51,837 nt of DNA. Source: Hyphomonadaceae bacterium (GTDB lineage Bacteria; Pseudomonadota; Alphaproteobacteria; Caulobacterales; Aquidulcibacteraceae). The stretch covers positions 1 to 51,837 of the forward strand of contig JAKFYF010000081.1 of NCBI GenBank assembly GCA_021731005.1. Reading direction: 5' to 3'. The position numbers and the translations under genes were made by a program. Of this stretch, positions 17,886 to 44,153 are shown one piece after another; the stretch's first letter is position 1, and every line of letters starts with the position of its first letter. The notes below the pieces were generated by a model that worked only from the letters and a program-made list of their open reading frames with translations, searched no databases and was not told where the DNA came from.

Positions 17886-17903
17886 AATGACCGGAACCGG
17901 CGA
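17886..17903 (+). repeat. 18-bp direct repeat, copy 1
   Basis: AATGACCGGAACCGGCGA; one mismatch to the copy at 18402-18419. Confidence 0.7.
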
Positions 17904-18025
17904 TGGCGGGACTTAGCGCACGCAGCATTGCGGGCGACGCGATTTGAGCGGGCAAGCCGCTGGTGAAATACTACGAATGGGCGGGCGGTGGCCCGATAGG
18001 ATCAGTTTGATCGGACGGGCAACTC

Positions 18026-18406
18026 TTGGCGACTGTTACTCTTTACCGGCCGATAGGCACTGCCGAGTTCGCGCTCTTGGAGCGTGCATTGTGGCGCGCG
18101 TTCCCAGCGATGCCGCAAGGGCACAAATTCTATGCCTACACCTCGCCACCTGAGGACGTGCTAGCCTGGAAAGAACGCTCGATGAAAATCGATGACATTC
18201 CAGAGGTTGGTCAAGCGGGCATTGTCCGAAGCTGGGAGGCTTGGGGCAATTCTCCTTCATCCGCGTTCATCGTGGCGTTCGAACTGGACGAGCAATCGCC
18301 CCTTCGTAAATCCGGATGGAATGATCGCAGCTATGAGGTTGATCAGATCAACGCCGCGCTGATTGGCATAATCTCGCTGCACGACTTGAACACTCCGAGC
18401 GAATGA
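18026..18406 (+). CDS. Hypothetical protein resembling the small 'ADP-ribosylation/crystallin J1'-annotated family
   Basis: N-terminus TLYRPIG..E.ALLE...WRAFP and C-terminal INAALIG.I recall that family; TTG start. Confidence 0.55.
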   Translation: MATVTLYRPIGTAEFALLERALWRAFPAMPQGHKFYAYTSPPEDVLAWKERSMKIDDIPEVGQAGIVRSWEAWGNSPSSAFIVAFELDEQSPLRKSGWNDRSYEVDQINAALIGIISLHDLNTPSE

Positions 18407-18419
18407 CCGGAAACGGCGA
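18402..18419 (+). repeat. 18-bp direct repeat, copy 2 (contains the stop codon of the preceding ORF)
   Basis: AATGACCGGAAACGGCGA. Confidence 0.7.
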
Positions 18420-18446
18420 AAGGCTTCCGGTGCGATGGCGGCGGTG

Positions 18447-18569
18447 TATGTCCGTTGTCGGGCGGATTCTCGCCGGTCCCTTGGAGCGTCGGCTTCTGGG
18501 ATCGAGCTCCTCCGCAGGCTCGCCGATCGGAAGGTTTGGAGCTGGCCTGCCGTCGGCAACACTGTGGCC
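18447..18569 (+). repeat. Degenerate ~125-bp intergenic repeat, copy A
   Basis: Collinear blocks GTCCGTT.TCGGG, GTCGGCTT.TGGGAT, CGGAAGGTTTGG, TG.GGCC shared with 20891-21015. Confidence 0.7.
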
Positions 18570-18655
18570 GCCCGGGCGAGATTGTCATCGACTCGCTCTC
18601 GGCTCCACAGGCGAGTAGGTTGTCCACATAGACGTGGGGTAGAGCGGGGCATTCG

Positions 18656-20845
18656 ATGGCGGTCACTGCGAACGAATGGGTGGGATCTGAATCCACCACG
18701 CAATCTGGCGCGAGCCAACGCGCTATAATCTGGGGGCTTTTTCAGATCGTCGCATTGGGCGGCTTGGCGCTTATCGGCTGGCTGGCGCTTGCGCCGCCGG
18801 TCCCCGTGTTCTGGCTGGGTGCTGGGTTTGCGGCTGCGGCGCTGCCTCAGCTCATGACAACCGCGCTGTTGATCCGCGAGGGTGCCCGCGCTCCTGGGCT
18901 GGCGCTTTGGACAACCGCTCTTGTTCTGTTCGCACTCTGCCTCGTGCTGGTTCAGGCGCCACGTTTCGGCGCTCACGATCCGACCATCGTGCATTCCGCG
19001 TTGGCATTCTTTGCGCTGGCGGCCCCCTATCTCGCGCTTTCGTTCAAGGTGCGCGAAGGCAAGGACATGAGCCCACGATGGCGATCTGGCGCCGTGAGCG
19101 CGATCGCGGCGTCGCAAACGCTCGCGCTCGCTGCGATGTGCGCTTCTCTACGATTTATCGCTGGCTTGGAAATCGAGACCTCTGCTCTGATCGCCTTCTA
19201 TACGATCATCATCGCCCAGCCTGTCGCCGCGTGCTGGCTGGAGGCGAGATCCGAGCATAAACTGCCGATCAAACCGGGCGGCGAACCCAAGCACGAGCAT
19301 ATCTCCGGCTTGGGCGTCATCTCGCTCGTCGTTTTCGTCATGACGATTGTGGGCCTGGGGCTATGGGCGGCTTCGAGAGCCAATAGCGCTTACATCAGCC
19401 AAGGCGCTGGCGTCATTGTCATCGCGGGTCTGGCCATCGCGTTTGCGCTCGTGGCTCTGGGGCCGAACGTGCGAGCGGGCGACCAGCTGGTGCGCGCACT
19501 GGCTGAAGCCAAGGTTATTTCCAGACTCGGCAATTTCGTCAGCCGAATCGATGGGGTTCTCGTGTTCGCGTTCGCCGGCGCGATGGGTGCAAGCCAAGAA
19601 CGCGGCGCGCTGCGCTACGGCCTGCTCGTCGGCCATCTCATTCCAAGCGCCATCCTCGGGTGGTTTCTGCCCGCGCCTTGGGGTCTGGTTCCGCTGGCTT
19701 GGGCGTTCATCGGCGCCATGGCGGTGGCCAGACGCTGGGCCTGGGTGGAGGAGGATCGCGAGAACGCGATGCTCAACAGGAAATTCGAAGGCCCGCATAT
19801 CAAGGTGGGCTTCGCCCAAGATCTCCGGGACGAAGCACTACTGGGTTTCATGTCGCTCTTTTTGCTTGTGCCGTTGGCGCTTCGGCAAATGCATATTGCC
19901 TTTGGCGGCAATCTCTTCGTGATCAATACCGGCGCGAGCGCCGATGATCTCATCGCCTGGATGAGCTTTTTCGGCACGGAGTTGGCCAAGGCAGTGCCGT
20001 TTGTCGACTGGGCCGAAATATATCAGGTCAAAGGCGATGCGCCGATCCATATCAATGACGCAAGCGTGGGGCCTGCCCAGCACGTTGTCTTCGCCACCCG
20101 CGTGATCGTCGATTTGGTGTTTCTCGCCGCTCTTCTGCAAGCCATCTCCATCTCGCAGCGCGCCGCCAAACTGAAGGACATGTTCTACAAGGACCGCACA
20201 CTCAACCGGCTTGATCCCTTTACGGAGGCCAAGGCGTTCAAAGCGCTTGTCGACGGCGAGAAGGGGTATTGGGTGCTGAGGGAGCCGATCCCTGAGCCGT
20301 TTTTGGCCTACGACGAGGATCGTTTGGAAGAACTGCAGATCAAGCACGAGAACGACGTGGTTGGTTTTGCCGCAAGCGAGCTATTGCGGCGCAACGCGCT
20401 GCGATCACCTGAACTATTGTTGGTCGAAGAGGCCAAGCTCGCCAAGCCCGATGCCGATAAGCTCGAAGACTACATCGAGCGCATCAGAGCTAAGCGCGAG
20501 GATCTGATCATCCATGACCTCAAGGCCGCGCACTACCTCTTGAATGAAGCGAGGACGCTACGGGCCGTTCGTGAAGAGATTGTCGAGATCATCGGCGAGA
20601 ACTGGCGAAACGACGGCGCCGTCAGCGCGCTTTCCGACATCCTGCTTGCTGGCGTCGGAGCGCGGGACGCGCGTCAAGAAGTGCGTCTAGCAGCGCTCAA
20701 GGGGCTCTATGCAGCAGCGGTGCACGGCGATCGGGAAGCGCGCATCGCAATAGTGTGGGCGGCGGACAATGAGGCGCAGAAGCTCAAGGAGCAGGCCAAC
20801 ACCTGGCTTAAGGAACATCCCGATTGGCGCGGCTCGCGCGCGTAG
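18656..20845 (+). CDS. Large polytopic membrane protein with helical C-terminal domain, unknown function
   Basis: 729-aa ORF, many hydrophobic segments, charged helical C-terminus (EVRLAALKGL, HEAT-like). Confidence 0.8.
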   Translation: MAVTANEWVGSESTTQSGASQRAIIWGLFQIVALGGLALIGWLALAPPVPVFWLGAGFAAAALPQLMTTALLIREGARAPGLALWTTALVLFALCLVLVQAPRFGAHDPTIVHSALAFFALAAPYLALSFKVREGKDMSPRWRSGAVSAIAASQTLALAAMCASLRFIAGLEIETSALIAFYTIIIAQPVAACWLEARSEHKLPIKPGGEPKHEHISGLGVISLVVFVMTIVGLGLWAASRANSAYISQGAGVIVIAGLAIAFALVALGPNVRAGDQLVRALAEAKVISRLGNFVSRIDGVLVFAFAGAMGASQERGALRYGLLVGHLIPSAILGWFLPAPWGLVPLAWAFIGAMAVARRWAWVEEDRENAMLNRKFEGPHIKVGFAQDLRDEALLGFMSLFLLVPLALRQMHIAFGGNLFVINTGASADDLIAWMSFFGTELAKAVPFVDWAEIYQVKGDAPIHINDASVGPAQHVVFATRVIVDLVFLAALLQAISISQRAAKLKDMFYKDRTLNRLDPFTEAKAFKALVDGEKGYWVLREPIPEPFLAYDEDRLEELQIKHENDVVGFAASELLRRNALRSPELLLVEEAKLAKPDADKLEDYIERIRAKREDLIIHDLKAAHYLLNEARTLRAVREEIVEIIGENWRNDGAVSALSDILLAGVGARDARQEVRLAALKGLYAAAVHGDREARIAIVWAADNEAQKLKEQANTWLKEHPDWRGSRA

Positions 20846-20890
20846 GCACATCGATGGTCCAGCCGCGGGCAGGTGCGCTGGCGCCCTGTC

Positions 20891-21015
20891 TACGTCCGTT
20901 ATCGGGTAGCGCTCAGTCGGCTCAGCGGAATGTCGGCTTGTGGGATGAAGCCCCGCTGCCGGTTGGGGTCGAACGGAAGGTTTGGGTTGGCCCGGCCAGT
21001 GATAACCTTGCGGCC
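20891..21015 (+). repeat. Degenerate ~125-bp intergenic repeat, copy B
   Basis: Collinear with 18447-18569. Confidence 0.7.
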
Positions 21016-21134
21016 ATCGGAGCAGGATTGGCCCCAATTTGCCGTCCAGCAATCGCGCGCCTGCCCACGATTTGGTTGCTGAAGAGGACAGCGCCTTCTA
21101 CGTTGCCGGCATCGGGTGCAGGCTGGGGGCGGCG

Positions 21135-21611
21135 ATGGGAGACGGCAGCGAGAGCAATCTTTATCGGTTGTGGGTCGAGGATATAGCACGCATTCGAGAA
21201 ATGCGGAGACAGACAACGGCTTTCTTTGTGTCGTTGAATTTGGCTGGTTACGGTGCCTTAGCCTTCGCGTTGTCGCCTAGCAACAACCTTCCGCGGCTCA
21301 CGGCTTTGGCTGCTTGCGTGGCGTTCTTGTTCGTCAACCTATCGTGGATTCTGACTGATCGAAGGTATGCGAAGCAGGCAGCGGCCAAATTTGCGTTCGC
21401 TCGCAAGCTCGAGGAATCGATGTCTCATCAGCCGCTTGCTAATGAGCACAAAGTTGTTGGGCAGCCTGCCGAACTCTCATGGTGGCTACTGATGGAGCGC
21501 TTGCTTCCCATACTCTTCAGCATCGGATTCGCAGGTTTGGCGGCTATCCAAGTGCCGTGGGCGATGCCCTTCAAAGCACCTGGCTGGTGGATTTGGCTTC
21601 TACAACGTTAG
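21135..21611 (+). CDS. RipA/Rip1-like small membrane protein
   Basis: Pattern LYRLWVE..ARI...RRQT.AFFVSLN, two TMs, W..TDRRY.K..A.KF.F.RKLEE.M..QP..NE, ERLLPILF matches my recollection of this family. Confidence 0.6.
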   Translation: MGDGSESNLYRLWVEDIARIREMRRQTTAFFVSLNLAGYGALAFALSPSNNLPRLTALAACVAFLFVNLSWILTDRRYAKQAAAKFAFARKLEESMSHQPLANEHKVVGQPAELSWWLLMERLLPILFSIGFAGLAAIQVPWAMPFKAPGWWIWLLQR

Positions 21612-21667
21612 AGACACGCGATTGGCCCCGCAGCATCAGAAGCAAGAAGGGGCAAGCTGGTGTGGCT

Positions 21668-23212
21668 ATGCGCAAGAGAGATAGCTCGCTTGACGAGGCG
21701 ATTGGCATACTAAAAACGTGGTCGCTGGGGCTCCACGACGAGGGCTTGATCGCGCGCGCCCTGCTGTTTGGAAGCGCCGTCGTCGATAAGGGGCGCAAGT
21801 TTTCGAGCGCAAGAAGCGACCTCGACGTAGTGCTGGAGGTGGAGTGGGAGAGCCTTCCGCGCCATGCCCGAGTTGTCGCAATGGATAAGCTGTTGGGGCA
21901 CAAAATCGCACTTGAGAAATCGCTTTCCGCGTTGCTCAGGCGTCCCGTCGACAAATCTGTGGCGAGTGTGGTGCTCATGACCCCATTCGAAATACGTAAT
22001 GGCGTGCACAAGGATGCTAACTCAACCATCATCTATGCGACGCCGATGGCGAGCTTGCTGGACGGTGGCGTGGTCTCGTCGCTAGGTCAGCGCAGCGATG
22101 CGGATCAAGTTTCACCCTTGTTAGAGGGGGCGCTCCGGTTTGTTCAGAAGAAGCGGAGCGAATACCTATCCGGAGCCTCGGATGGGGTATTGCCATCTTT
22201 GTCATCTCCGTTGGACTTTCGTGTGCCCAAGGAGCTGATGCGCAACTTTGCGATCTCCACCTTTAATGACGCCGAAGGAGACGACCCAGCGGATCTTTCG
22301 CGGGGCTTCAAAGAGCTGACATTATTCGGACTGGTGGCGACGGGGGCTCACGCGTTGGAACTCGATTTGGCGGAGTGGCTTGGGCCGAGGTTGAGTGAAG
22401 TTGGTTGCGTGGACAACTTGATGCCGAGGCAGGCATACATGCTGTGCTGTGAGAAAATCTACGACAACATTCGAGCGCAATTCGTTGGGCCAAGCGCCGT
22501 TGAGGTCATAAGAACGCCGCGAACCGCTCCTGTTTCCAGAGTCCCGGCATTGGCACTCGCGGACGCTTCTTTCAGAATATCCCAGACGAACAAGTTGGCG
22601 GGGAGCGCGGGACACAACATCAAGCAAATTCTGAACGCGCGTCTCAACCTGAGACTCTCGGCGGAAAAGTCGTTCGCGTTGTTGTTTGACGAGTCGCCAG
22701 ACGCGCGGGAGCTTGTGAACGCACCTGACGAGACGCTGCCGTTGAAACAGCACAAACAGAAGATCAAGATTCTGGAGAGGCGACTTACGGCCTACGGCCT
22801 GGAGCCCCGCATCGTCTGGGGGTGGGATAAGATATTGTATTATGCAGGGATCATCTGGGACGTTTCGGAGGATGAATTGCCGCCCTTAATCTTACGCGCG
22901 ATGCGGGCATGGGTGGATCATTGTTACCTTGGATTCGAAAATATCGGTGGCCGCTGGGAAGCGCTTCACGGAGGGATGTATCCGAGGATCCCGCTTGCTT
23001 TTTCCTTCTCTGTAAGTGGTGAACTCGACGGGCCAGAGCTCGGAGCTCAAGTTCCAGTCCGGCGCGTTTCCGATGAGGATCTAGCGGAGAGCTTTGTTCC
23101 CGAGTTGGTGTCAAAGGCCCGCCGCCTGTGCAGCGATGGCGTGTTGAAGGATGGAAGAGAGGAGCTGAAGGTCGTGTTCAACTGTGCAGAATGGTATTTC
23201 GGGTGGAAATAG
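21668..23212 (+). CDS. Pol-beta-superfamily nucleotidyltransferase-domain protein with unknown C-terminal region
   Basis: LLFGS..(12)..SDLDVVL signature; visibly lower GC than flanks. Confidence 0.65.
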   Translation: MRKRDSSLDEAIGILKTWSLGLHDEGLIARALLFGSAVVDKGRKFSSARSDLDVVLEVEWESLPRHARVVAMDKLLGHKIALEKSLSALLRRPVDKSVASVVLMTPFEIRNGVHKDANSTIIYATPMASLLDGGVVSSLGQRSDADQVSPLLEGALRFVQKKRSEYLSGASDGVLPSLSSPLDFRVPKELMRNFAISTFNDAEGDDPADLSRGFKELTLFGLVATGAHALELDLAEWLGPRLSEVGCVDNLMPRQAYMLCCEKIYDNIRAQFVGPSAVEVIRTPRTAPVSRVPALALADASFRISQTNKLAGSAGHNIKQILNARLNLRLSAEKSFALLFDESPDARELVNAPDETLPLKQHKQKIKILERRLTAYGLEPRIVWGWDKILYYAGIIWDVSEDELPPLILRAMRAWVDHCYLGFENIGGRWEALHGGMYPRIPLAFSFSVSGELDGPELGAQVPVRRVSDEDLAESFVPELVSKARRLCSDGVLKDGREELKVVFNCAEWYFGWK

Positions 23213-23440
23213 ACGCGAATTCTTCTCGCTTGACGTCACGGCCCTTCGACAACGGCAATCTCCGGCGATAAATGCTCGGTTGTGGGGCGAACTCATCCGT
23301 CGGCTAACCGGCGGTAAACGGCCGAACTGTCGGATTGGGGCGCCTCGCCGTTCGCGAACTTTAGCAGTCGTCTGACTGCCTGTTGAGGGGGAACCATCAG
23401 CGCTTCTCTGCGTATTCCCGCCAACACCGGCCAACACGCC

Positions 23441-23536
23441 GCGTCAGGGACCGACGCCCGAAGGGCCGAGCCGCGCAGGACCCGCGCGGCTCGGTGCGCA
23501 AGCACGAGGGCCCGGCCGCCAACGGCGGCGACGCCC
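23441..23536 (+). repeat. Multi-hairpin (cloverleaf) element, copy 1
   Basis: GCCC-GAA-GGGC, CCGAGCCGCGC/GCGCGGCTCGG, GTGC-GCAA-GCAC, GCCGCC-AAC-GGCGGC, closed by GCGTC/GACGC. Confidence 0.75.
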
Positions 23537-23742
23537 AGGTTCTGACTGCTTCAAGTCACCCCATTTCAGTCGGGTAGAATCCCTTGTACGACAAAAGCGC
23601 GATCGATCGTTCTCCCATCGCGCGAATTATCGCCTGTCAAGGGGCACGATCGTGTCCATCGACGCCGCCCCTGTTCTGAGTATTTGATTCGCACCCTGAC
23701 CGCCTGCGTGAGCGGCCACGCACCCGGCGCCAAGAGGGGTTC

Positions 23743-25770
23743 ATGCGCATCGTCATCGCACTCGCGATTGCTTTCATCATCGCTTTGGCGAGCTTGAGCG
23801 CCGCGACCCAAACCCTCGCCGCTATCTTCAGTCACCAAGCCGCCCTCGGTCCGCCGCTGCTGACATTGGGAAAGACCCGCCTTTACCCACCCTGGGCAGT
23901 GCTTTCCTGGACGCACGCTTATGCACAGCGGTTTCCCAAACCGTTCGCGGCGGCGCGTCTCATCGTGTTCGCGGGATTGTGTCTCGCGCTTCTCGCGATT
24001 GTGCTGGCGGTGCGAGCCAAGTTCGCCATCAAGCCATTCGGCAGACATGCGTGGGGCGGCGTCGACGACGTGGCCGCCGCGGGTCTTCTTGCCGAAACCG
24101 GCTGCGTGCTCGGCAGGTTCCAGCGCGAAGTCCTCTGCTTTGACGGCCCAGAACATCAGCTCCTCATCGGCGCTTCGCGCTCGGGCAAGGGCAGGGGCCA
24201 TGTGATCCCAACGCTGCTGGCCTGGCCGCATTCGGCATTGGTCTTGGACGTCAAGGGCGAACTCGCCGACGGCGATCTCCGCCATTCTTTCCCTGGAACC
24301 GCTGGCTTCCGCGAAACCTTAGGTCCCGTGCTGCGCTTTGCGCCCACGCGCATGGACTCCGCCGCCTTCAATCCGCTCCACGAAGTCAGGCGCGGTCCCA
24401 ACGAAGTCCGCGACGTGCAGAACATTGTCGAGATTTTAGTCGATCCCATCGGCGACGGGCGCCATCAGGATTTCTGGGATCGCTCGGCCAAGAACATCCT
24501 CGTGGGGGTCATCCTCCACGTCCTCTACGCCGAGCCTGGCGAGCGCAAGACGCTCGCAATGGTGCGCGAAAAACTCCGCGACCTCGACGCCACGGCGCAA
24601 GTCATGAAATCGACCTTGCACCGGCTCAACCCCGCGACCAATCGGCCCGAAGTGCATCCCGAAATTTTGCACGCCGCGGAATCCTTTCTCGCCGGCGAGG
24701 AACGGCTGCAATCAGGCGTCAAGGCGACCGCCGAGAGCTTCTTTGGCCTGTTCGCCGACGAGATCGTCGCCCAGAAAACCGCAGCCTCGGATTTCCGCAT
24801 CGGCGATCTGATGTGCGGGCCAAAACCCGTGACGCTCTTCTTGCAGCCCCCGCCCTCGGATGCGCTGCGCCTCATGCCGCTTCTGCGCCTCGTCATCAAT
24901 CAATTCGCCCGCGCGCTCATGGAAGACCAGAATGCCGACGCGCAGGGCCGTCCCAAGCGCCATCGCCTCATCCTCATGCTCGATGAATTCCCGATGCTCG
25001 GGCGCATGCAATTCTTTGAAACCATGATGGGGGCGATGGCGGGTTACGGCCTCAAGGCGTTTCTCGTCACCCAGAGCCTCAATCATCTCACCAAGGCCTA
25101 TGGCCGCGACAATGTCATTCTCGACAATTGCCACATCGTCACTTCGTTTGCCGCCGCCGACAACGACACCGCCAAGCGTATCGCGGAGATGGCTGGCGAA
25201 GTCTGGGAAATGCGCGAGAGCGAGACGCATACGCGTCCAAGATCGATCCTTGGATGGCGCAAGGGATCGACCACGATCCGCGAAGAACGCCGCCCGCTCA
25301 TGCTGCCCGCCGATGTCCGCGCGCTGCCCCGCGACCAGGAACTCATCTTCGTCTCCGGGGCCAAACCCATTCGCGCCAAGAAGCTCAAATTCGACCAGGA
25401 GCGGGTGTTCTCAGAGCGCTTGCGCCCGGCCTCCCCGCATCGCCCGCAGCTCTCCACCGGCCATGATTGGGCCAATGTGCGCCCGCTCGGATTCATCCCC
25501 CAGCCAGCAAAAGCGCCCAAAGTCCGGTCAGAAAGGGCAAAGCCCGCAATCGCGAAGCCCGCGGCGCCAAAGCCGGCGATGGCGCGGCCTCTGGCCCAGC
25601 AGCCCGATCTCTTCACCCAGGCCGCGGTGCGGGGAGGAACGCTCTCCGAGCTGGCCATGGCGGGCTTCCGCACTGTCGACGGAGCGCCGCTGCCCCATCC
25701 CTCAATTCCCTTGGCCGCCGAGCCAATTCCGGAACCAGCGCCGCGCGCCAGGCGCGCCAAAGGGGTTTGA
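23743..25770 (+). CDS. traG: Type IV coupling protein TraG/VirD4
   Basis: LYPPW, GASRSGKG Walker A, VIPTLL.W, DVKGE, FNPL.EVR, LMLDEFPMLG, QSLN, ILDNCH. Confidence 0.95.
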   Translation: MRIVIALAIAFIIALASLSAATQTLAAIFSHQAALGPPLLTLGKTRLYPPWAVLSWTHAYAQRFPKPFAAARLIVFAGLCLALLAIVLAVRAKFAIKPFGRHAWGGVDDVAAAGLLAETGCVLGRFQREVLCFDGPEHQLLIGASRSGKGRGHVIPTLLAWPHSALVLDVKGELADGDLRHSFPGTAGFRETLGPVLRFAPTRMDSAAFNPLHEVRRGPNEVRDVQNIVEILVDPIGDGRHQDFWDRSAKNILVGVILHVLYAEPGERKTLAMVREKLRDLDATAQVMKSTLHRLNPATNRPEVHPEILHAAESFLAGEERLQSGVKATAESFFGLFADEIVAQKTAASDFRIGDLMCGPKPVTLFLQPPPSDALRLMPLLRLVINQFARALMEDQNADAQGRPKRHRLILMLDEFPMLGRMQFFETMMGAMAGYGLKAFLVTQSLNHLTKAYGRDNVILDNCHIVTSFAAADNDTAKRIAEMAGEVWEMRESETHTRPRSILGWRKGSTTIREERRPLMLPADVRALPRDQELIFVSGAKPIRAKKLKFDQERVFSERLRPASPHRPQLSTGHDWANVRPLGFIPQPAKAPKVRSERAKPAIAKPAAPKPAMARPLAQQPDLFTQAAVRGGTLSELAMAGFRTVDGAPLPHPSIPLAAEPIPEPAPRARRAKGV

Positions 25771-25775
25771 GGCCC

Positions 25776-26228
25776 ATGCCGACGCGCAAGCTCAGCGTCT
25801 ATCTGCCCGACGCCCTCAACGCAAAAGTGCGCCAGGCAGCCCGCGACCAGCACCGCTCGGAATCGAGCATCATCTTGGAATCGGTGAAGGCGCGGCTTGA
25901 ACGCGGCGAGGCGACCAACGCCGCCATCGAGGAAAGTGCGCGCCGCCAGCTCAGCCGTGTGGACGCCCGGCTCGAAAAGCTGATCGGCGAAGGTCTCATC
26001 CTCAAGGAGATAGTGCTCCTCTTCATCCGGGTCTGGCTCGAACACAATCCTCCGATCGAGGAGCATCTGGAAGAGAGCGCTGCCGCCAGCGCCGAAGCGC
26101 GCTTCGAGCGCTTCCTCGATTTCGTTGCCCAACAACTCTCGCCGGGCAAGTCGCTCGGGGAAACGGTCTTCTCACTCACCGTCAGTGGAAATGGCGCGCA
26201 CGAGCCAGCAAGCGAGGCGCGAACGTGA
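25776..26228 (+). CDS. CopG/ribbon-helix-helix protein of the tra-trb operon
   Basis: KLSVYLPD..RSESSII, FIRVWL.HNPP, ARFERF; canonical position between traG and trbB. Confidence 0.8.
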   Translation: MPTRKLSVYLPDALNAKVRQAARDQHRSESSIILESVKARLERGEATNAAIEESARRQLSRVDARLEKLIGEGLILKEIVLLFIRVWLEHNPPIEEHLEESAAASAEARFERFLDFVAQQLSPGKSLGETVFSLTVSGNGAHEPASEART

Positions 26229-27175
26229 GCGCAGCGCCCATCAATATCGCGGCGGCCCGGCGGCGCTCGGCGCTCTCGCGCGCACTCGGGCCCGCCATCG
26301 CCGCGGCGCTCGAAGAGAATGACGTGGTCGAAGCCTTGGTCAACGCCGACGGCCGCGTTTGGTTCGACCGCGTCGGGAAAGGGCTCATCGCGACGCCGCA
26401 TCATCTGTCGCCGCAGGACCGCGAAGCGGCGATCCGGCTCCTGGCGCATGAGGCCGGGGAGACCGTCAGCGAGGACCGCCCTGCATTGGCGACCATTCTG
26501 CCCGACAGCGCCGCGCGCGTGCAGGCGCTTTTGCCGCCCTTGGTCGAAGCGCCAATCCTCGCCATCCGCAAGCGCCCCTCGGCGATTTACACGCTCGACA
26601 ACTATGTCAGCGACGGCATCGCCACCGCCGCCCAAGCCGAGAGGCTGGCGAATGCTGTACGCGAAAAACGCAACATCATCGTCGCCGGCGGGACGGGCAG
26701 CGGCAAGACCACTTTGCTCAATGCGCTCCTGGCCGAAGACGCCTTCCGCCAGGCCCGCATCGTCATCCTGGAAGACACCGCCGAGCTGCAATGCGCCAAT
26801 CCCAATTGCGTGCAGCTGCTGACCAAGCGCACCGATCCGCCCGTCACCATGCGCGAGCTGGTGCAAATGACGCTGCGCCTCAGGCCCGACCGCATCGTCG
26901 TCGGCGAAGTCCGCGATGGCGCGGCCCTCGAAGTACTCAAAGCCTGGAACACCGGCCATCCGGGTGGGCTGCTCACCCTGCACGCCAATTCCGCCGCCGA
27001 TGCGCTGATGCGGCTTGAAGACCTCTGCATGGAAGCGCGCGCCACCCCGCCCAAGCGTCTCATCGCCAGCGCCGTCGACATGATCGTGTTCATCGCCCGC
27101 CGCGAAGGCGGGCGGGTCATCACTGAAATCCTGGAGACCGAGAACCTAGTTGGAGGGGCGAGCCATGAGACATGA
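26225..27175 (+). CDS. trbB: P-type conjugative transfer ATPase
   Basis: GGTGSGKTT, LEDTAELQC, LRLRPDRIVVGEVR, WNTGHPGG..TLHAN. Confidence 0.95.
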   Translation: MSAAPINIAAARRRSALSRALGPAIAAALEENDVVEALVNADGRVWFDRVGKGLIATPHHLSPQDREAAIRLLAHEAGETVSEDRPALATILPDSAARVQALLPPLVEAPILAIRKRPSAIYTLDNYVSDGIATAAQAERLANAVREKRNIIVAGGTGSGKTTLLNALLAEDAFRQARIVILEDTAELQCANPNCVQLLTKRTDPPVTMRELVQMTLRLRPDRIVVGEVRDGAALEVLKAWNTGHPGGLLTLHANSAADALMRLEDLCMEARATPPKRLIASAVDMIVFIARREGGRVITEILETENLVGGASHET

Positions 27176-27479
27176 GAAAGTCCTGCGCGTTGCGGCGATT
27201 ACGCTGGGCGCGTGCATCCTGGCGGCGCCCGCTTACGCCGCCGGTTCCGGCATGCCCTGGGAAGGGCCGCTGCAGCAGATCGTCGATTCGATCACGGGTC
27301 CGGTCGCACGCGCCGCCGCCGTGATCGCCATCGTCATCGCCGGGGTGACCATCATCTTCTCCGAAGGCGGCGGCGGAGTGCGCAAGCTCGCCTTCGTGGG
27401 CCTCGGCATCGCCATCATGTTCGCGGCGGTCTCGTTCTTTCTCGACTTCTTCGGCTTTGCCGGCGGGGCGACGATATGA
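27165..27479 (+). CDS. trbC: TrbC/VirB2 pilin
   Basis: AAGSGMPWEGPLQQIVDSITGPVA, FFGFAGGA. Confidence 0.93.
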   Translation: MRHEKVLRVAAITLGACILAAPAYAAGSGMPWEGPLQQIVDSITGPVARAAAVIAIVIAGVTIIFSEGGGGVRKLAFVGLGIAIMFAAVSFFLDFFGFAGGATI

Positions 27480-27748
27480 ACGCCGCCGATCTCGAGCCCG
27501 AAGGCTATCGCATCCCGCTCAGGACCTCGCTCACGCGCCCGATCCTGATGGGCGGCGTGCCGCGCAACTTCGCCATTCTCAACGCAACCGTCGGCGCGGC
27601 GATCGGCTTCGGTCTGCAACAACCCTTCATCGCCTTTCCGTTATGGGCTGTGCTGCAAGGCGCCGCTGCGTGGGCCGCTGCGCGCGATCCCTGGTTTCTC
27701 GACACCTGGCCGCGTCACATGGCCAAGCCTCATTATTTCGGATCGTGA
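27476..27748 (+). CDS. trbD: TrbD/VirB3
   Basis: SLTRPILMGGVPR..AILN, AARDP motif. Confidence 0.9.
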   Translation: MNAADLEPEGYRIPLRTSLTRPILMGGVPRNFAILNATVGAAIGFGLQQPFIAFPLWAVLQGAAAWAAARDPWFLDTWPRHMAKPHYFGS

Positions 27749-27758
27749 GGCGCGACGC

Positions 27759-30251
27759 ATGATGGATCTGCGCCCTTACAAGAAGTCCGGCACGCAACTC
27801 AGCGATTTCCTGCCCTGGGCTGCGTTGATCGCGCCGGGCGTGGTCCTCAGCAAGGACGGCGCCTTCCAGCGCACCATGGCGTTTCGCGGTCCCGACCTCG
27901 ATTCCTCGACGCCGTCCGAACTGATGGGGGCGTCCGCGCGGCTCAACAACGCGTTCCGCCGATTGGGGTCCGGCTGGTGTCTTCATGTCGAGGCGCGCCG
28001 CGCGCCCGCACCGGGCTATCCGGACTCGGTATGGCCCGACGCCTTGTCTTGGCTCATCGATGAAGAGCGCCGCGCCGTGTTCGAGGCCGCCGGTGCGCGA
28101 TTCGAGAGCGCCTATTTCTTCACGCTGACATGGCTGCCTCCCGCTGAGCGCCAAACCCGGCTGGAAAGCTTTCTGTTCGAAGGCGCGCAGGATGGCGCGA
28201 GCGCGCCGACAGCTTCTGTCGATTATCGCCAGCATCTCGACCGCTTCACCAACGAGACCGATCAGATCCTGTCTCTGATGGAGACGCTCGCGCCCGAAGC
28301 GCGCTGGCTCGATGATGAGGAGACGCTGACCTATCTGCACGATTGCGTCTCCGATCGTCCCCATCGGGTGGCCAGACCGGACACGCCCTTCCATCTCGAC
28401 GCGCTTTTGACCGACGCGCCGCTCGTGGGTGGTCTCGCGCCGTGCCTTGGGCGCCATCATCTGCGGGTCATTTCGGTGCGCAGCCTCGTGACGGAGACGG
28501 AGCCCGGCTTTCTCGATGCACTCAATCGGCTGGCGATCTCCTATCGCTGGGTCAGCCGCTTCATTCCGCTCGACCGGGAAGAGGCGCGCCGCGAACTGGA
28601 GAAGACCCGCAAGCGCTGGTTCTCGAAACGCAAAGGCCTTCTGACCTTGCTGCGGGAAGCTCTTTTCAGGGAAGAGGCGCTGCTGGTCGACAATGACGCC
28701 GCCAACCAAGCCGCCGACGCCGACACCGCGCTGCAGGAACTCGGCGCCGATGCTGTCAGCGCGGGCTATGCCACACTCACCATCACCGTCGCCGATGCAA
28801 GCGAGGATATGGCCGACGATGCGGTGCGCCAGATCCAACAGATCGCCGATGGCCTGGGCTTCGTCACGCAAGTTGAGTCCGTCAATGCCGTGGAAGCCTG
28901 GCTCGGCTCATTGCCTGGACAGGCCTACGCCGATGCACGCCGGCCGATCCTCCTGTCGCCCAGTCTCGCGCATTTGCTGCCGCTCAGCGCGGTCTGGGCG
29001 GGGCCGCACGGCAATACGCATCTGAATGGGCCACCACTCATGCTCACGGCGACGGATGGCGCAACGCCGTTCCGGCTCGATCTCCATGTCGGCGATGTCG
29101 GTCACACCATGATCGTCGGGCCAACCGGCGCGGGCAAATCGGTGCTGCTCGCAACGCTAGCCGCGCAATGGCTGCGCTACACGTCGTGTCATCCTGCGGG
29201 TGCGCAGATCTATCTGTTCGACAAGGGGCGCTCGTGCCGCGCCACTATTCTCGCCCTCGGCGGCGACTTCTTCGATCTGGGCGAGGCCGATGCGTTGGGC
29301 TTGCAGCCGCTTGAACATGTGCATGAGCCGGATGAACGCGCCTGGGCGCAAGACTGGCTCGTCGGTCTGATCGCTTCGGCCAATGTGACCGTGACGCCCG
29401 AGGTGCGCACGGAAGTGTGGCGCGTTCTGGAATTGCTGGCTGATCGGCCGTTGGAGGACCGGACGCTGACCTTGTTTGCGGCGTTGATGCAGAACCAGGA
29501 CGTCCGCGCCGCGCTTCATCCGTTCACGCAAGGAGGCGCGCACGGCCGGCTCATCGACCACGATCGATCAACCTTGGGCTATGGGCCGGTCCAGGCGTTC
29601 GAGATGGATGATGTGTTGCGCCGTCCCGAAGCGGCGGGCGCGGTGCTCGGCGCGCTTTTTCATGCCTTGGAGAAACGCTTCGACGGGCGCCCGACCATGC
29701 TCGTCCTCGACGAGGCCTGGCTCTTCCTCAAGGACGCCTTCTTCGCAGCCCAGATTCAAGATTGGCTGAAGACGCTTCGAAAGCGCAACGTGGCCGTCGT
29801 GTTCGCAAGCCAGGAACTGGCCGATGTCGAACACTCTTCCATCGCCTCCACCATCATCGAAGCCTGCCCGACGCGCATTTACTTGCCGAACGATCGCGCA
29901 CGCGAGCCGCATTCGCGCGCTTTCTACGCCGCCTTGGGCTTGAACGGTCGCCAGATCGATCTCATCGCAAGTGCGACGCCCAAGCGCGACTATTACCTCG
30001 TCAGCCGCGATGGCTGCCGGCTGTTCGAATTGGGCCTTGGGCCTGCGTCGCTCGCTTTTGTCGGCGCGTCCCGTCCCGAGGATCACACGCTGATGGATCG
30101 TGTGTTGGCCGAGCACGGCGCAAGCGCCTTTGCCGAAGAATGGCTCGACCTGCGCGGACAGCGCGAAGCGGCTGACGCGGTGCGGCGTTTCAAGGCGCGC
30201 GCATCCCCGCGCGTCACTGATGAGCCCAAGGTCCGGATCGCTGCAGAATAG
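27759..30251 (+). CDS. trbE: Conjugal transfer ATPase TrbE/VirB4
   Basis: DFLPWAAL, FRGPDLDS, DVGHTMIVGPTGAGKS, LDEAW, WLKTLRK. Confidence 0.96.
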   Translation: MMDLRPYKKSGTQLSDFLPWAALIAPGVVLSKDGAFQRTMAFRGPDLDSSTPSELMGASARLNNAFRRLGSGWCLHVEARRAPAPGYPDSVWPDALSWLIDEERRAVFEAAGARFESAYFFTLTWLPPAERQTRLESFLFEGAQDGASAPTASVDYRQHLDRFTNETDQILSLMETLAPEARWLDDEETLTYLHDCVSDRPHRVARPDTPFHLDALLTDAPLVGGLAPCLGRHHLRVISVRSLVTETEPGFLDALNRLAISYRWVSRFIPLDREEARRELEKTRKRWFSKRKGLLTLLREALFREEALLVDNDAANQAADADTALQELGADAVSAGYATLTITVADASEDMADDAVRQIQQIADGLGFVTQVESVNAVEAWLGSLPGQAYADARRPILLSPSLAHLLPLSAVWAGPHGNTHLNGPPLMLTATDGATPFRLDLHVGDVGHTMIVGPTGAGKSVLLATLAAQWLRYTSCHPAGAQIYLFDKGRSCRATILALGGDFFDLGEADALGLQPLEHVHEPDERAWAQDWLVGLIASANVTVTPEVRTEVWRVLELLADRPLEDRTLTLFAALMQNQDVRAALHPFTQGGAHGRLIDHDRSTLGYGPVQAFEMDDVLRRPEAAGAVLGALFHALEKRFDGRPTMLVLDEAWLFLKDAFFAAQIQDWLKTLRKRNVAVVFASQELADVEHSSIASTIIEACPTRIYLPNDRAREPHSRAFYAALGLNGRQIDLIASATPKRDYYLVSRDGCRLFELGLGPASLAFVGASRPEDHTLMDRVLAEHGASAFAEEWLDLRGQREAADAVRRFKARASPRVTDEPKVRIAAE

Positions 30252-30260
30252 GAGGCGCGT

Positions 30261-30980
30261 ATGAAACGGAGAACAAGAACTGGAATGGCCGCCTTGGCGA
30301 TCTGCCTGATGCTTGGCGTGCAGCCGACGCCGCCCGCATCGGCGCAAATCCCGGTCATCGATCCCGCCAATCTTGCACAGTCGATCACGCAGGTGACGCA
30401 CATGGTGCAGCAATTGCGCAACCAAGTGCAGCAGATCGAGCAAGCGACGGCGATGCTGCGGCAGAATCCGCTCCAGCTCTCACCCGAGCTCTCGCAGTCG
30501 ATCGGGGAAGCCCGCGCGCTGTTCAACAGTGTGCAAGGCGTCGCCTTCGAGGCTCATCAGCTCGGCGAGGATTTGCGCACCCTCTATCCAGAGACCTGGG
30601 AGAATTTCGATCTCGAAGAGGTTCTGGGTCAGTCGGACCAGTGGATGGCGGAAAGCCGCCGCAGCCTTGAACGCGCGATGGCGGCCGAAGCGCGCGCGGC
30701 GGCTTCGATCGGACGCACGCAAGGCGCCATCGATCGTGCGCTGCAATCGTCCGGTAGCTCGGAAGGTCAGACCGGCGCCATCCAGGCCGGCAATCAGCTC
30801 TTAGGCATTCAGGCCTCGCAGCTTGCGGAGATTCACACGCTGCTGATTGCGCAGGGCCGCGCGCTTGAAACTGAACGCCTGGAGCGGATCGCGCGCGAAG
30901 AGCGCGCCCGCGAAATTCAGCGGCGCGCTTTCCCGACCGAAACCTCAGGCACGCTGCCACCAGCGCGCACGGCGTTCTGA
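30261..30980 (+). CDS. trbJ: Conjugal transfer protein TrbJ/VirB5
   Basis: Signal peptide, VIDPANLAQ, GAIQAGNQLL. Confidence 0.9.
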   Translation: MKRRTRTGMAALAICLMLGVQPTPPASAQIPVIDPANLAQSITQVTHMVQQLRNQVQQIEQATAMLRQNPLQLSPELSQSIGEARALFNSVQGVAFEAHQLGEDLRTLYPETWENFDLEEVLGQSDQWMAESRRSLERAMAAEARAAASIGRTQGAIDRALQSSGSSEGQTGAIQAGNQLLGIQASQLAEIHTLLIAQGRALETERLERIAREERAREIQRRAFPTETSGTLPPARTAF

Positions 30981-30996
30981 GCGAGGGCGCCGCGCG

Positions 30997-32037
30997 ATGG
31001 ATCCGGCATCGGTCAATTCTTTCCTCGATCAGTTTCTGGCTGTCGCCAATTCCGGCTTCGGCCTGATCCAGGGCGATGTGACTTATGTCCTGAATGCGCT
31101 GATCGTCATTTCGATCGTGCTGGCGGGCGCCCAATGGGCGTTGGCGCAGGAGGCGCCGCTCGCGCCCTTCTTCCGCAAGGTGCTATTCGTCTCGTTCTTC
31201 GCCTTCCTCATCAACAATTGGAATTTCCTCGCCACCGCCATCAATCAATCGGGCGCCATGCTTGGCCTGCGCGCCGGCGGGGGCGGGCTCACCATGGCGG
31301 AGCTGCACAATCCCGGCCGCGTGGGGCAGATCGGCGTCGAGCTTTTCGGCCGCACCGCGGCGCTCGCCGAAGGCATGAACATCCTCACCGACTTCTTCGC
31401 GATGATGACAATCTTCCTCGCGGCGTTCTTCGTCATGCTCGGTTTCTTCGTGCTGGCGCTGCAGCTCTTCGTGGTGCTGATCGCGTTCAAACTCGGTTCT
31501 CTGGTCGCGTTCGTGGCGTTGCCCTGGGGCGTGTTCAACGGCACGGCCTGGGTGGCGGAGCGACCGCTTGGCTGGGTGGTGGGCTCGGCCATGCGCCTCT
31601 TCGTGCTGGCCTTTGTCGCGTCGGTCGCCATCACGTTCGTCAACACATTGCCCGCGACCTTCACGCTTGACGCCGGGGGCGTGCTCAATGTGCTTCTGTT
31701 CGGCGCCACTGTTCTGGCGCTCTCCTGGTTCGCGCCCATTCTCGCGAGCGAGGTCGTCCAGGGACAGCCGCATCTGGCGGGACCGGCTGTCGCCGGCGCC
31801 GCCGCGGTCACCACCGTGCTTGGCGTCGCCGGTACGACAGCCTTCGTTTCCAACGCCACAAAACTCGCCGTTGGCGGCGCAAGAATGATTGGCGGCGCGG
31901 CGAAATCGGCGGGTCGCCGCTTCTCAAGCGGCGGCGGGCCTCAAGGCGCTGCACGGCCCGCCATCGACTATGCCGGCATGAAGCCGCCGCCACCGCCGCC
32001 GCCTGCAACGCCGCCATCTGGAGGAAGTAGTACATGA
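30997..32037 (+). CDS. trbL: Conjugal transfer protein TrbL/VirB6
   Basis: SGFGLIQGDV, KVLFV.FFAFLINNW, AFKLG, AERPLG; Gly/Pro-rich tail. Confidence 0.92.
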   Translation: MDPASVNSFLDQFLAVANSGFGLIQGDVTYVLNALIVISIVLAGAQWALAQEAPLAPFFRKVLFVSFFAFLINNWNFLATAINQSGAMLGLRAGGGGLTMAELHNPGRVGQIGVELFGRTAALAEGMNILTDFFAMMTIFLAAFFVMLGFFVLALQLFVVLIAFKLGSLVAFVALPWGVFNGTAWVAERPLGWVVGSAMRLFVLAFVASVAITFVNTLPATFTLDAGGVLNVLLFGATVLALSWFAPILASEVVQGQPHLAGPAVAGAAAVTTVLGVAGTTAFVSNATKLAVGGARMIGGAAKSAGRRFSSGGGPQGAARPAIDYAGMKPPPPPPPATPPSGGSST

Positions 32038-32717
32038 GGACGCCGTTCACGGCGCCGGCGCAATCCTATGCCGGCGACGAGCCCGACACGCCCTATAAGC
32101 GCGCGCGCCAGGAATGGGACCGGCGCATGGGTGCGGCGGTCATTTCCGCGCGCGCTTGGCGTCTGATGGCGATGGCGGGACTTCTCCTCTCCGCAGGCCT
32201 TGCGCTCGCGCTCACGATCGTCGCGCTGCAGAGCCGAACCTTTGTGCATGTCGTCGAGGTCTCGCCCGAAGGCCAGGTGCTCAATGTACGCGCCGCGAGC
32301 GGCGAATGGCGCGCGACCGAAGCGCAGACCGCATATCATCTAGGGCGCTTCGTGCGTCTCGTGCGGGCTTTGCCAACCGATGGCGTGGTGCTGCGCGAGA
32401 ACTGGCTGGAAGCGTACAAATTCCTGACGCCGCAGGCGGCGGCGCAATTGACCGAGATCGCACGCGCGGACGATCCGTTCCTGAGCCTAGGGCGCGTCGG
32501 ACGCACCGTCCATATTCGCTCGATCATCCAGCGTTCCGATCGATCCTGGGAAGTCTCCTGGATCGAGCGCGAGACCAATGCGACCGGATCGCCCGATGGC
32601 GAGGCCTATAGTGGCGTCTTCTCCGTCACGACGCGCCGCCCACGCACCGCCGATGAGATCGCCAGTAATCCGCTCGGTCTGCTCATCTCCGATTTCAGCT
32701 GGAGCCGGGTGCGATGA
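32034..32717 (+). CDS. trbF: Conjugal transfer protein TrbF/VirB8
   Basis: TPYKRARQEWDRRMG, NW..AY.FLT, NPLGL...DFSWSR. Confidence 0.93.
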   Translation: MRTPFTAPAQSYAGDEPDTPYKRARQEWDRRMGAAVISARAWRLMAMAGLLLSAGLALALTIVALQSRTFVHVVEVSPEGQVLNVRAASGEWRATEAQTAYHLGRFVRLVRALPTDGVVLRENWLEAYKFLTPQAAAQLTEIARADDPFLSLGRVGRTVHIRSIIQRSDRSWEVSWIERETNATGSPDGEAYSGVFSVTTRRPRTADEIASNPLGLLISDFSWSRVR

Positions 32718-34698: not shown

Positions 34699-35012
34699 AG
34701 GTTCCGGCTGACCTTGTGCCGCAAAAGGTGGTGGCGGACGATCTTTGCGTGAGCCTCGCCACGCTCTGGCGCGCGCGCCGTAGCAACCTTCCGGGTTTTC
34801 CCGCGCCGGTCATCGTCCGCAACATGGTGTTCTGGAGGAAGGCCGATCTCGGCAAGCTGGAGGATGCGCTGCTGCAGTTCCAAGGGCGCGGCAAGTTCGA
34901 ACAGGAGCGCGAGCGGTCAAAACGCATCGCCGCCATGACGAAGGCCCGCCCGCAACCCAAGCGCATCAAACGCACGCGCCGTCCGGACGACCGCCAGCGC
35001 GATCTCTTTTGA
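34695..35012 (+). CDS. Small AlpA/excisionase-like DNA-binding protein
   Basis: VADDLCVSLATLWRARR...GFPAPV......FWR..DL winged-HTH pattern; ATGA-coupled to trbI; basic tail. Confidence 0.6.
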   Translation: MKVPADLVPQKVVADDLCVSLATLWRARRSNLPGFPAPVIVRNMVFWRKADLGKLEDALLQFQGRGKFEQERERSKRIAAMTKARPQPKRIKRTRRPDDRQRDLF

Positions 35013-44130: not shown

Positions 44131-44153
44131 ATTCATTTCGAAAGGAATAACCT

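Follow-up and report, generated by a model that had tools for sequence, protein, structure and literature searches.

Genes and repeats of the locus

The window, by which we mean the whole 51,837-nucleotide stretch from a Hyphomonadaceae genome (G000) that was analysed here, contains, at 17886..23390, four genes set among repeats. The open reading frames confirm that all four are co-oriented, as had been noted in a preliminary description made from the sequence alone. The features are as follows.

17886..18006, + strand: three-site unit (linker), 71 bits, with hexamers A CGGCGA (17898-17903), B TTGAGC (17944-17949) and C TGGCCC (17989-17994)
17898..18413, + strand: putative A-to-A cassette, 516 bp, consisting of the linker and the 126-aa ORF, between the A hexamers at 17898 and 18414
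18026..18406, + strand: 126-aa orphan ORF, its stop codon falling in the following A site's left arm
18402..18600, + strand: site stack with A 18414, D CGGGCG 18459, E TGGGAT 18497, B 18537 and a decayed C 18583
18497..20940, + strand: mobile E-to-E cassette, 2444 bp, with the 729-aa gene (loose ends in other samples)
18656..20845, + strand: 729-aa protein, hydrophobic N-terminal half, no family match
20891..21046, + strand: site stack with D 20903, E TGGGAT 20941-20946, B 20983 and C TGGCCC 21029
21135..21611, + strand: 8xMP (RipA-like octameric membrane protein family) gene, Pfam PF24838, E 8e-14, start set at ATG 21135 by inspection
21668..23212, + strand: Pol-beta nucleotidyltransferase (NTase-conflict) gene, Pfam PF20697, E 3e-24, in one cassette with 8xMP
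23251..23350, + strand: type-A site (hexamer 23263-23268), then two looser units (23271, 23326)
23743..35012, + strand: traG and trbB-I conjugation module (context only)

The repeats in the window are the borders of swappable gene cassettes. The preliminary description had read them as an integron-like gene-capture array with non-attC sites, an interpretation that proved largely right and was favoured by each of its proposed tests that was run. All motifs given there were confirmed at their positions. The repeat AATGACCGGAAMCGGCGA does flank the 126-aa ORF: its only two copies in the genome start at 17886 and 18402, the second of them holding the TGA of the ORF. The two copies of the ~125-bp element flanking the 729-aa gene agree in 86 of 127 columns, with a score of 116 against 66 for the best of 1000 shuffles (z 10.4), and contain the related sub-units, at 18450/20894, 18488/20932 and 18528/20974; the looser units after the NTase gene are likewise present at 23271 and 23326. 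The repeat GATTGGCCCC was also said to flank the Rip-like gene, but its second copy, at 21620, is a chance occurrence with no arm (score -9.6); the genome has 14 occurrences against ~14 expected by an arithmetic estimate from base composition. Lacking an arm, the 21620 copy is not a site, and therefore the 8xMP and NTase genes lie in one cassette. The type-A site at 23251-23280 and the full three-site unit at 17886-18006 had been overlooked.

The 126-aa ORF belongs to no Pfam, NCBIfam, PHROG or PADLOC family, is absent from all family genomes (0/147) and has 6 homologs at 61-90%. A metagenome scan with the protein gave no match, so the cassette was not seen in another context; a metagenome scan with the D-E pattern gave no match either. 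The NTase gene is also found in 0/147 family genomes, and its pairing with 8xMP is absent in the single full-length NTase homolog viewed. Units are missing both from 27 loci of other genomes with distant homologs of the 729-aa protein (29-46% identity) and from the 19 loci looked at among 61 matches to 8xMP outside the window. These are ordinary genes, chromosomal in the case of the 729-aa relatives, and are uninformative on mobility. The tie to the conjugation module that had been suggested looks incidental: there are 0 units in 19 traG loci, and an array lies upstream of traG in 1 of 10 longer traG regions.

Site classes, linkers and their distribution

Each unit is a stack of two-armed sites ~30 bp long, whose central hexamer is constant within a class: CGGCGA in A, TgGAgC in B, TGGCCC in C and TGGGAT in E. 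The arms, A-n-n-G-n-C-n-G, lie four bases away from the centre on both sides of the non-palindromic hexamer and form a dyad of 29-30 bp with a centre of 5-6 bp. CGGCGA is present in 273/331 units, and the distance from A to B is 46 nt in 226/273 units, a fixed geometry. In the 52-kb window, the type-A site at 23251-23280 is one of only three sites with arm and CGGCGA, all of them within 17886..23390. No match was found in the window with Rfam or ARAGORN, and a promoter reading of the stack was dropped on inspection, as the candidate hexamers are 14 nt apart.

Stacked units had been taken for scars of lost cassettes. Mostly they are fixed and reused linkers of two or three sites (A-46-B-45-C) that travel with the cassette; some remnants may be present in the longer one at 18402-18600. 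Within that stack, 18411-18502 is 99% identical to G000:C2:48388-48479, the identity beginning at A and stopping at E. The stack at 20891..21046 is 83% identical over 107 bp to G000:C144.

Profiles seeded from the window units identified 53 units on 14/373 contigs of this genome, where 47 unit-bearing contigs would be expected, and 0 matches on the shuffled genome. Neighbouring units are co-oriented in 39/39 pairs. The units are therefore clustered and directional and not spread genome-wide, and 46 control loci (171 kb) contain 0 units. Three closed relatives have 33, 90 and at least 141. Outside the family, the A-B-C model gave only 2 marginal single matches on 150 other alphaproteobacterial genomes, which makes the A-B-C unit family-specific among those searched; a strict unit pattern run over GTDB contigs, too strict to map the distribution, found 1 locus, in a Hyphomonadaceae MAG. 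With the origin placed by the hemE proxy, 282/283 units in 16 clusters point in the leading-strand direction. This polarity may be linked to replication.

Across the arrays, 124/193 segments between sites contain one ORF, with a median coverage of 87%, and 35 of these 124 single ORFs (about 28%) are antisense. The cargo is like that of chromosomal-integron cassettes, including GFA, SnoaL, glyoxalase, toxin-antitoxin and DUF proteins, and 85/150 cargo proteins have no Pfam match. An enrichment in anti-phage genes was considered and is unsupported: in a PADLOC test on 146/154 cargo ORFs, matches were to 6/150 proteins, mostly partial, and to none of the window's four.

Cassette movement

Have these cassettes moved? 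The 729-aa gene recurs at >99% identity on contigs of other studies, next to three different upstream neighbours, and the joint is exactly at hexamer E; the loose ends at 18497 come from runs X5, X9 and X10, that is, three studies and three neighbours. The right end of the same cassette is at 20940 in X5 and at 20946 in X7, with 199 nt beyond it in that piece. A contig of run X9 departs from the window directly after the A hexamer, at 17903, and X9 also joins other DNA within the A hexamer at 18416. Of the 15 loose ends listed in 17886-23390, six coincide with an A or E hexamer or its edge (three at 18497, one each at 20940, 17903 and 18416), places that make up ~1% of positions; eight are off sites and one is two bases short. 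Breakpoints in other samples therefore map to the units, as the preliminary description had anticipated. The comparison covered eight of 19 runs, and no RNA sample was listed among the carriers. Array parts without cover in X5, X7, X9, X10, X11 and X15 were not counted as absence, and no cassette-skipping contig or circle was found in the contigs of other samples, which drop rare forms.

All three new arms at 18497 keep G-9 and C-7 and have an arm-matrix score of only 0.5-2.0, and in X5 the DNA beyond 20940 does not start with TGGGAT, so that this joint was made without hexamer homology. Compared with array-free dps alleles, the left edge of the array is 60-70 bp ahead of site A.

Duplicated blocks within four genomes (at least 250 nt, at least 90% identity; n=31) also bear on the exchange points. 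In 17/31 the end is no more than 3 nt from a hexamer of class A or C, and three blocks run from A to A with new neighbours, for example 909 nt at 99.6%. Four begin at a site but finish off any site, and 8/31 have neither end at a site. The exchange points are the hexamers, for classes A, C and E. The cassette at 17898..18413 is drawn partly from these duplicated A-to-A cassettes in relatives, its own mobility not having been seen.

A very small tyrosine recombinase

No recombinase is visible in the window, as had been stated, and none of the genome's 10 PF00589 matches is on its contig (C1). The associated tyrosine recombinase that was sought is present elsewhere in the genome and in relatives. 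It has 214-215 aa and is a catalytic-domain-only protein, in which about 35 residues precede the catalytic domain and there is no core-binding domain; in relatives its gene is located inside a site unit. The catalytic residues R66, K94, H163, R166, H189 and Y198 are invariant in 46 sequences, and intact homologs have both the R-K-H-R-H-Y set and the catalytic-domain fold. The nearest structures are XerA, XerH and Cre. The structure model is of low confidence (pLDDT 60). The only copy assembled in G000 is truncated: it matches no further than residue 191 of 215 and so has neither the final His nor the Tyr.

The surroundings of the gene suggest that this enzyme moves the cassettes. Close homologs have a C hexamer upstream in 17/20 cases and an A hexamer downstream in 12/18, with unrelated flanks beyond; in a second clade an E-like hexamer is upstream of 7/9 homologs, and in G092 there are units on either side of the gene, which speaks against a place at the head of the array. 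Units are present in 23/23 genomes with a close homolog versus 73/124 without. Among the 25 genomes with at least 20 units, only 11 have a close homolog and 14 have any homolog.

Comparison with known systems

Integrons, in chromosomal and CALIN form, offer the closest parallel. According to PMC4889954 and PMC5371416 they too are co-oriented site arrays with mostly single-gene cassettes in different contexts, each cassette a gene plus one site unit, with tens to >100 units, integrase-less clusters, a replication-orientation bias and similar cargo; targeting by IS110/IS1111 elements is shared as well, going by PMC11187229 on IS1111-attC. The differences are in the parts. There is no IntI in this genome (TIGR02249 below cut-off, best 76 bits vs 265; genome 91% complete), and the mini-recombinase profile, compared with XerA, has neither an IntI-type insertion before the HxxR box nor a core-binding domain. 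Its gene lies within the array, probably not at an attI head, and there are several hexamer classes, several clusters per chromosome and about 28% antisense cargo. The attC cores of integrons have the form RYYYAAC...GTTRRRY. This motif occurs in 1/114 full units on each strand, and an attC-like hairpin model was rejected as there was no conserved fold and no arm covariation, so that attC is excluded by motif, fold and covariation.

The pdif modules of Acinetobacter (XerC/XerD), as presented in PMC6449649, are similar in their short double-stranded two-armed sites, 6-bp centre and Xer-like chemistry. Their flanking sites, however, are described as inverted and dif-like with a variable centre. 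Ours are repeated directly, have a centre fixed per class, form stacks of three at a 45-46 bp spacing, lie on the chromosome and come with a recombinase of their own. Simple tyrosine recombinases (Xer, integron-like, Rit, TnpA) share the R-K-H-R-H-Y set, yet all groups are reported to have core-binding and catalytic domains (PMC8138268), whereas the present family differs, with about 35 residues before the catalytic domain.

The Caulobacter CIR repeat is, like our units, an intergenic repeat of about 115 bp in tens of copies; it is palindromic with paired GANTC (CcrM) sites. Two or more GANTC are present in only 3/114 units, unlike in CIR. The same size, placement and copy number are found in MITEs and REP elements (PMC10969869). 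The units differ from all of these in being clustered, polarised and at the bounds of mobile genes, without terminal inverted repeats or target duplications.

Proposed mechanism of cassette movement

We propose that the window holds a short part of a cassette array. Its accessory genes meet at co-oriented sites, and the very small tyrosine recombinase probably moves them as double-stranded DNA. The enzyme would excise and re-insert cassettes, like hexamers recombining with like. An A-to-A or E-to-E exchange would release a circle of one gene and one linker that could be taken up again by a different site of that class. The asymmetry of the hexamer would hold all sites in one orientation. The recombinase gene itself may be a cassette and not a fixed platform: its position is within units, and its mobility is suggested because its flanks are unrelated. 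An array would outlive the loss of its enzyme, and this genome, whose only assembled copy is truncated, would be such a case.

Could the host enzymes do this instead? Real cassettes might be recombined by XerC/XerD, activated by FtsK and hence polarised, as for pdif, with the mini-recombinase a passenger. The strict leading-strand polarity is consistent with this, as is the resemblance of 30-bp sites with a 6-bp centre to dif geometry (28 bp, 11-6-11; PMC6449649). Site-rich genomes without the mini-recombinase also exist: in closed G071 there are 33 units, and recent duplicates at 95-98%, alongside nothing better than 27% Xer matches, and G073 and G078 are like it. We consider this reading unlikely, however, since the best two-armed site of all is immediately 3' of the recombinase stop codon in 14/18 intact loci, and the arm motif adjoins homologous recombinases on alpha- and betaproteobacterial plasmids (12/4344 near vs 60/54714 far positions), a modest 2.5-fold enrichment from six loci. 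The centre fixed per class also stands against it, given the variable pdif centre.

Alternatively, the same enzyme and cassettes might use a single-stranded reaction at the replication fork, exchanging one strand and leaving replication to resolve the product, as integrons do. This would account for the missing core-binding domain and for the polarity of 282/283 units, and chromosomal integrons are biased for the same reason (25/30; PMC5371416). The A cores gain 1.3 kcal/mol in folding over shuffles, and the X5 joint lacks hexamer homology. Against this, whole units have no folding advantage over shuffles (59 units; mean z -0.38 and -0.24), the B and C cores have no folding gain, 0/11 arm pairings covary and the RNAalifold consensus is just -1.6 kcal/mol. 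A single-stranded route is for these reasons improbable.

That the units are MITE- or REP-like repeats inserted between island genes, with movement by insertion sequences and homologous recombination, is very improbable and largely refuted: near-identical linkers with different flanks on both sides (C25/C117, 100 nt at 100%) and IS110-family copies at site C would fit, but cargo travels with the sites and stops at the next hexamer, 114 units have no terminal inverted repeats (mean 8.9/20) or target duplication, and the single orientation and unit-free control loci speak against it.

With movement as double-stranded DNA by the mini-recombinase as the preferred reading, the repeats are likely part of an integron-like system for collecting genes, which a very small recombinase would probably operate, in a class that reportedly lacks integrons. 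PMC4889954 reports that integrons, In0 and CALIN are absent from 243 alphaproteobacterial genomes, an absence it terms 'extremely puzzling'. We lean, if only slightly, towards a second, independently built superintegron-like system that fills the integron role in an alphaproteobacterial family, with a mini-recombinase cassette, up to 140 or more chromosomal sites, non-interchangeable hexamer classes and alignment with the replication fork. In the open-access literature searched, no description of such a system came up.

With a cassette system parallel to integrons and made of different parts, the question of integron absence becomes testable. Such a system would also bring a large pool of accessory genes, unannotated and invisible to attC-based tools, and a recombinase apparently able to function with no core-binding domain. 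The almost complete leading-strand polarity suggests that recombination and replication are connected. The natural site classes may be orthogonal and useful for DNA engineering. Independent samples place the crossover of the 729-aa cassette to the base, which allows direct design of substrates.

Repeat units and their distribution

The window makes up the whole of contig C1 in an assembly of 3.37 Mb, 373 contigs and 91% completeness (genome G000). Each motif of the preliminary description of the array (17886..23390) was found where it had been placed; the second GATTGGCCCC, which had been read as a flanking repeat, is a chance match that has no arm, and an A site at 23263 had been overlooked. 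Identity between the two ~125-bp elements is 68% (z 10.4). Named by central hexamer (classes A to E), the two-armed sites follow the order A-B-C, 126-aa gene, A-D-E-B-(C), 729-aa gene, D-E-B-C, the genes for a RipA-like octameric membrane protein (8xMP) and a Pol-beta nucleotidyltransferase (NTase), and A with two loose units, a unit being the A-B-C stack. Iterated profiles seeded with these units found 53 copies in G000 and no match in the shuffled genome. Genome-wide occurrence had been raised as the mark of an ordinary repeat; the units are clustered on 14 contigs, against about 47 expected under uniform placement, and all 39 adjacent pairs lie on one strand.

Unit anatomy was taken from 331 units of G000 and three closed genomes, the latter carrying 90, at least 141 and 33 units. 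The unit comprises three cores. Core A has the hexamer CGGCGA in 273 units, B follows at a spacing of 46 nt in 226 of these 273, and core C, 44-46 nt beyond B, has the hexamer TGGCCC in 146. The cores are dyads: counted from the centre, G stands at nine bases, C at seven and A/T at twelve. Core B is shorter than the others by one base. Classes D and E (TGGGAT) in the window have arms identical in kind to those of A, B and C, and all ten arm-bearing E sites in array regions are on the array strand.

A unit model built from sequence only, scanned over the Alphaproteobacteria as had been proposed, had matches in 96 of the family's 147 genomes and 67 of the genus's 79, but in no more than 2 of 150 other alphaproteobacterial genomes, with one marginal match apiece. 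Counts of 23 units per genome in this search are a lower bound. The one named locus that bears units is from a Hyphomonadaceae MAG.

Exchange at the hexamers

Eight of 19 sequencing runs of other samples were compared with the window; X1 and X3 went uncounted as they may belong to the source campaign. Runs from four other studies contain pieces of the 729-aa gene that show 0-5 differences. Contigs of X5, X9 and X10, from three studies, all depart from the window at one position, 18497, where hexamer E begins, and the sequence joined there differs in each, with G-9 and C-7 of the arm kept and low scores for the new arms on the arm matrix. On the right side, X5 departs after 20940, the base preceding the next E hexamer, and its new neighbour does not start with TGGGAT; a piece in X7 stops at 20946, the last base of the E hexamer. 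X9 also departs after 17903, at an A hexamer, and at 18416, inside one. That breakpoints should map to the units had been anticipated: among the 15 loose ends listed in the array, 6 lie at A or E hexamers and one falls two bases short; of the 8 at other places, two are 21-23-nt matches. Joints that skip a cassette were not seen in the eight runs.

Four genomes together have 31 duplicated blocks: 17 end no more than 3 nt from A or C, 4 are insertion sequences, 2 are repeats within a gene and 8 have no end at a site. Three run from A to A and have new neighbours (909 nt at 99.6%, 621 nt at 92% and 312 nt at 95%); some begin at C, others are the linker alone, and four start at a site and end off it. 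The histogram of block ends is in part biased by hexamer conservation, and it is the long blocks on which we rely. One duplication, at 92%, covers a response regulator paired with a histidine kinase and ends at A, and a three-gene block starting at C is shared by contigs C2 and C112 at 92%; multi-gene cassettes exist.

Duplicated multi-gene blocks in G000
C2:1-6512, duplicated multi-gene block
C112:8735-10733, duplicated multi-gene block

In genome G070, a tandem 309-bp duplication from A, with an N at the joint (L151:15713-16386, read in array orientation), may be an assembly artefact.

A candidate recombinase

G000 has no IntI and ten PF00589 matches. One of these, 140 bp from a C core and antisense to the array of contig C106, supplies the associated tyrosine recombinase that was to be looked for, in a truncated copy; it ends after residue 191 of 215, before the catalytic tyrosine, and is the sole assembled copy. 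In relatives this mini-recombinase is intact, with 214-215 aa and six invariant catalytic residues. Its profile aligns with XerA from residue 112, with no insertion, so that it consists of the catalytic domain only; the available text of a recombinase classification (PMC8138268) has no group that is without the core-binding domain. In the structure model, which is of low confidence, the N-terminal 31 residues are unstructured; the model has matches to XerA, XerH and Cre.

Within the close clade, the gene sits inside a unit. Upstream of it are B and C, the latter in 17 of 20 loci; behind the stop, 14 of 18 loci have a near-perfect two-armed site, and A follows 46 nt past it (12 of 18). The DNA beyond A and C is unrelated among loci. 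In a second clade (65%), 7 of 9 loci carry an E-like hexamer 72-87 nt upstream of the gene, and this links the E sites of the window to the enzyme family. Of the 147 family genomes, 41 have homologs; others are on plasmids of alpha- and betaproteobacteria, and the clusters of homologs run into the thousands, with 7998 of 8000 candidates scored. Named records of close relatives are Hyphomonadaceae-labelled, Terricaulis and Ca. Viadribacter; together with the named unit locus they make an alphaproteobacterial host of the Caulobacterales probable.

Might host XerCD instead recombine the sites? Any mini-recombinase homolog is present in 14 of 25 site-rich genomes, and closed genome G071 is without one. 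Units occur in 23 of 23 genomes with a close homolog versus 73 of 124 without, the within-genus medians being at least 23 and 4 units, respectively, among kin that are not independent; fragments in G099 and G086 suggest that the gene has been lost there. We consider host XerCD improbable, and the mini-recombinase family is our candidate.

The mini-recombinases of G000 and of G062, from another genus, are 97% identical, and one and the same inserted end interrupts both at an identical base (L001:5738-6295, L016), which suggests recent transfer of an island with a dead recombinase gene.

Polarity and folding

With hemE, which we take to be an origin proxy for this group, G+C skew agrees by sign in 35 of 36 site-bearing 20-kb regions that have one majority strand. 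Among regions drawn from the best 150 of 264 matches, weaker isolated units being in part outside, 282 of 283 units and 16 of 16 clusters run along the leading strand. In G000, three single-site contigs have skew of opposite sign. The two-thirds sense bias of the cargo cannot yield this polarity and was rejected as its cause. Chromosomal integrons have a weaker bias of 25 of 30, as attC folds from single strands, according to the accessible part of one study (PMC5371416), and some insertion-sequence families are biased via the sliding clamp, according to extracts of another (PMC3971601).

A single-strand route would be in keeping with such polarity. The RNAalifold consensus of 28 units is -1.6 kcal/mol, and whole units gain nothing over shuffles on either strand (59 units). 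No arm complementarity above shuffled partners was found in 11 pairings, among which were the attC-like outer pair and the circle-formed pairs, and one B pairing is below them; taken by themselves, A cores gain 1.3 kcal/mol over shuffles. The sites are not hairpins. Cores of attC type occur in 1 of 114 units on each strand, and the view of the sites as non-attC stands. A single-strand route is unlikely. That these multicopy units are MITE or REP elements is scarcely credible, with no terminal inverted repeats or target duplications in the 114 units examined.

A highly probable gene-cassette system

Exchange occurs at hexamers A, C and E, and the 729-aa cassette (18497..20940) has moved. We regard a gene-cassette system as highly probable, in agreement with the integron-like gene-capture array with non-attC sites first proposed. 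The mechanism as a whole is likely: on the geometry and direct orientation of the sites, which are observed, the mini-recombinase family would catalyse exchange on double-stranded DNA, like hexamer would recombine with like, and cassettes would move through circles. In its working the array resembles a sedentary integron or CALIN, but it lacks IntI, the IntI insertion, attC cores and the attC fold. With pdif modules it has the geometry of the sites in common, and it differs from them in orientation and centre variability, as far as the available sections describe them (PMC6449649). Integrons, In0 and CALINs are absent from 243 alphaproteobacterial genomes in the portion of a survey at hand (PMC4889954). 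Within the open-access literature, a scope that excludes subscription papers and supplements, we found no description of such a cassette system. What is added by the window is threefold: breakpoints, exact to the base and taken from independent samples, for a cassette that it carries itself; the presence of several hexamer classes within one array; and the leading-strand rule.

Cargo

A simple purpose-made gene caller was applied to 193 segments of 150-2500 bp. One ORF was called in 124 (89 sense, 35 antisense), more than one in 34 and none in 35. Of 154 ORFs, 150 were taken; 65 have a Pfam match, including GFA four times, SnoaL, glyoxalase, beta-lactamase-fold proteins, BrnT, ParD, PIN, SMI1/KNR4 and DUFs, and 6 have PADLOC matches, mostly partial. 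Three IS110-family copies in G092, with sub-terminal inverted repeats, start directly after hexamer C, in parallel with IS1111 elements, which target attC according to the available text of PMC11187229. A G070 cassette holds a related IS110-family copy in opposite orientation; the loci of these elements are L126, L127, L138 and L151.

The 8xMP and NTase genes (21135-23212) share one cassette, in a layout like the signal enzyme and membrane effector of anti-phage systems; no 8xMP was beside the NTase homolog at the one full-length homolog viewed, on a Rhizobium plasmid (32%). The 729-aa gene has a paralog of 40% identity (G000:C82:4971-7337), which likewise abuts a unit and is antisense to it. 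Units were absent from 27 loci of 729-aa homologs in other genomes.

Neighbourhood of the array

Features flanking the array in the window
17288-17791, dps, left neighbour
23743-35012, traG-trb module, right neighbour

The four array genes have 54-61% G+C versus 65% on both flanks. A tie to the conjugation module, as had been supposed, is not upheld: units lie within 1.5 kb at 0 of 19 traG homologs, and 1 of 10 longer traG regions has an upstream array (G111). One of 8 dps relatives has a unit behind it (G080), with different cassettes, and two array-free dps alleles begin to diverge 60-70 bp ahead of site A. Because traG and dps loci are mostly without units, the array is island cargo outside the transfer module.

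The G111 array (contig C74, L201-L202) has A and E sites and two second-clade recombinases, 15-30 kb upstream of traG and on its strand. Between array and traG, a ~100-bp repeat unlike the units (23439-23537) has a further copy at 41160, two on C11 and one on C76; it is present in many relatives, and 2-4 copies at 77-79% identity occur on betaproteobacterial conjugative plasmids. It was rejected as a cassette site. At 43627-50537, a TonB receptor gene, two DJ-1/PfpI genes, MbnP and a di-haem cytochrome c peroxidase gene stand in a row as a copper-uptake-like cluster.
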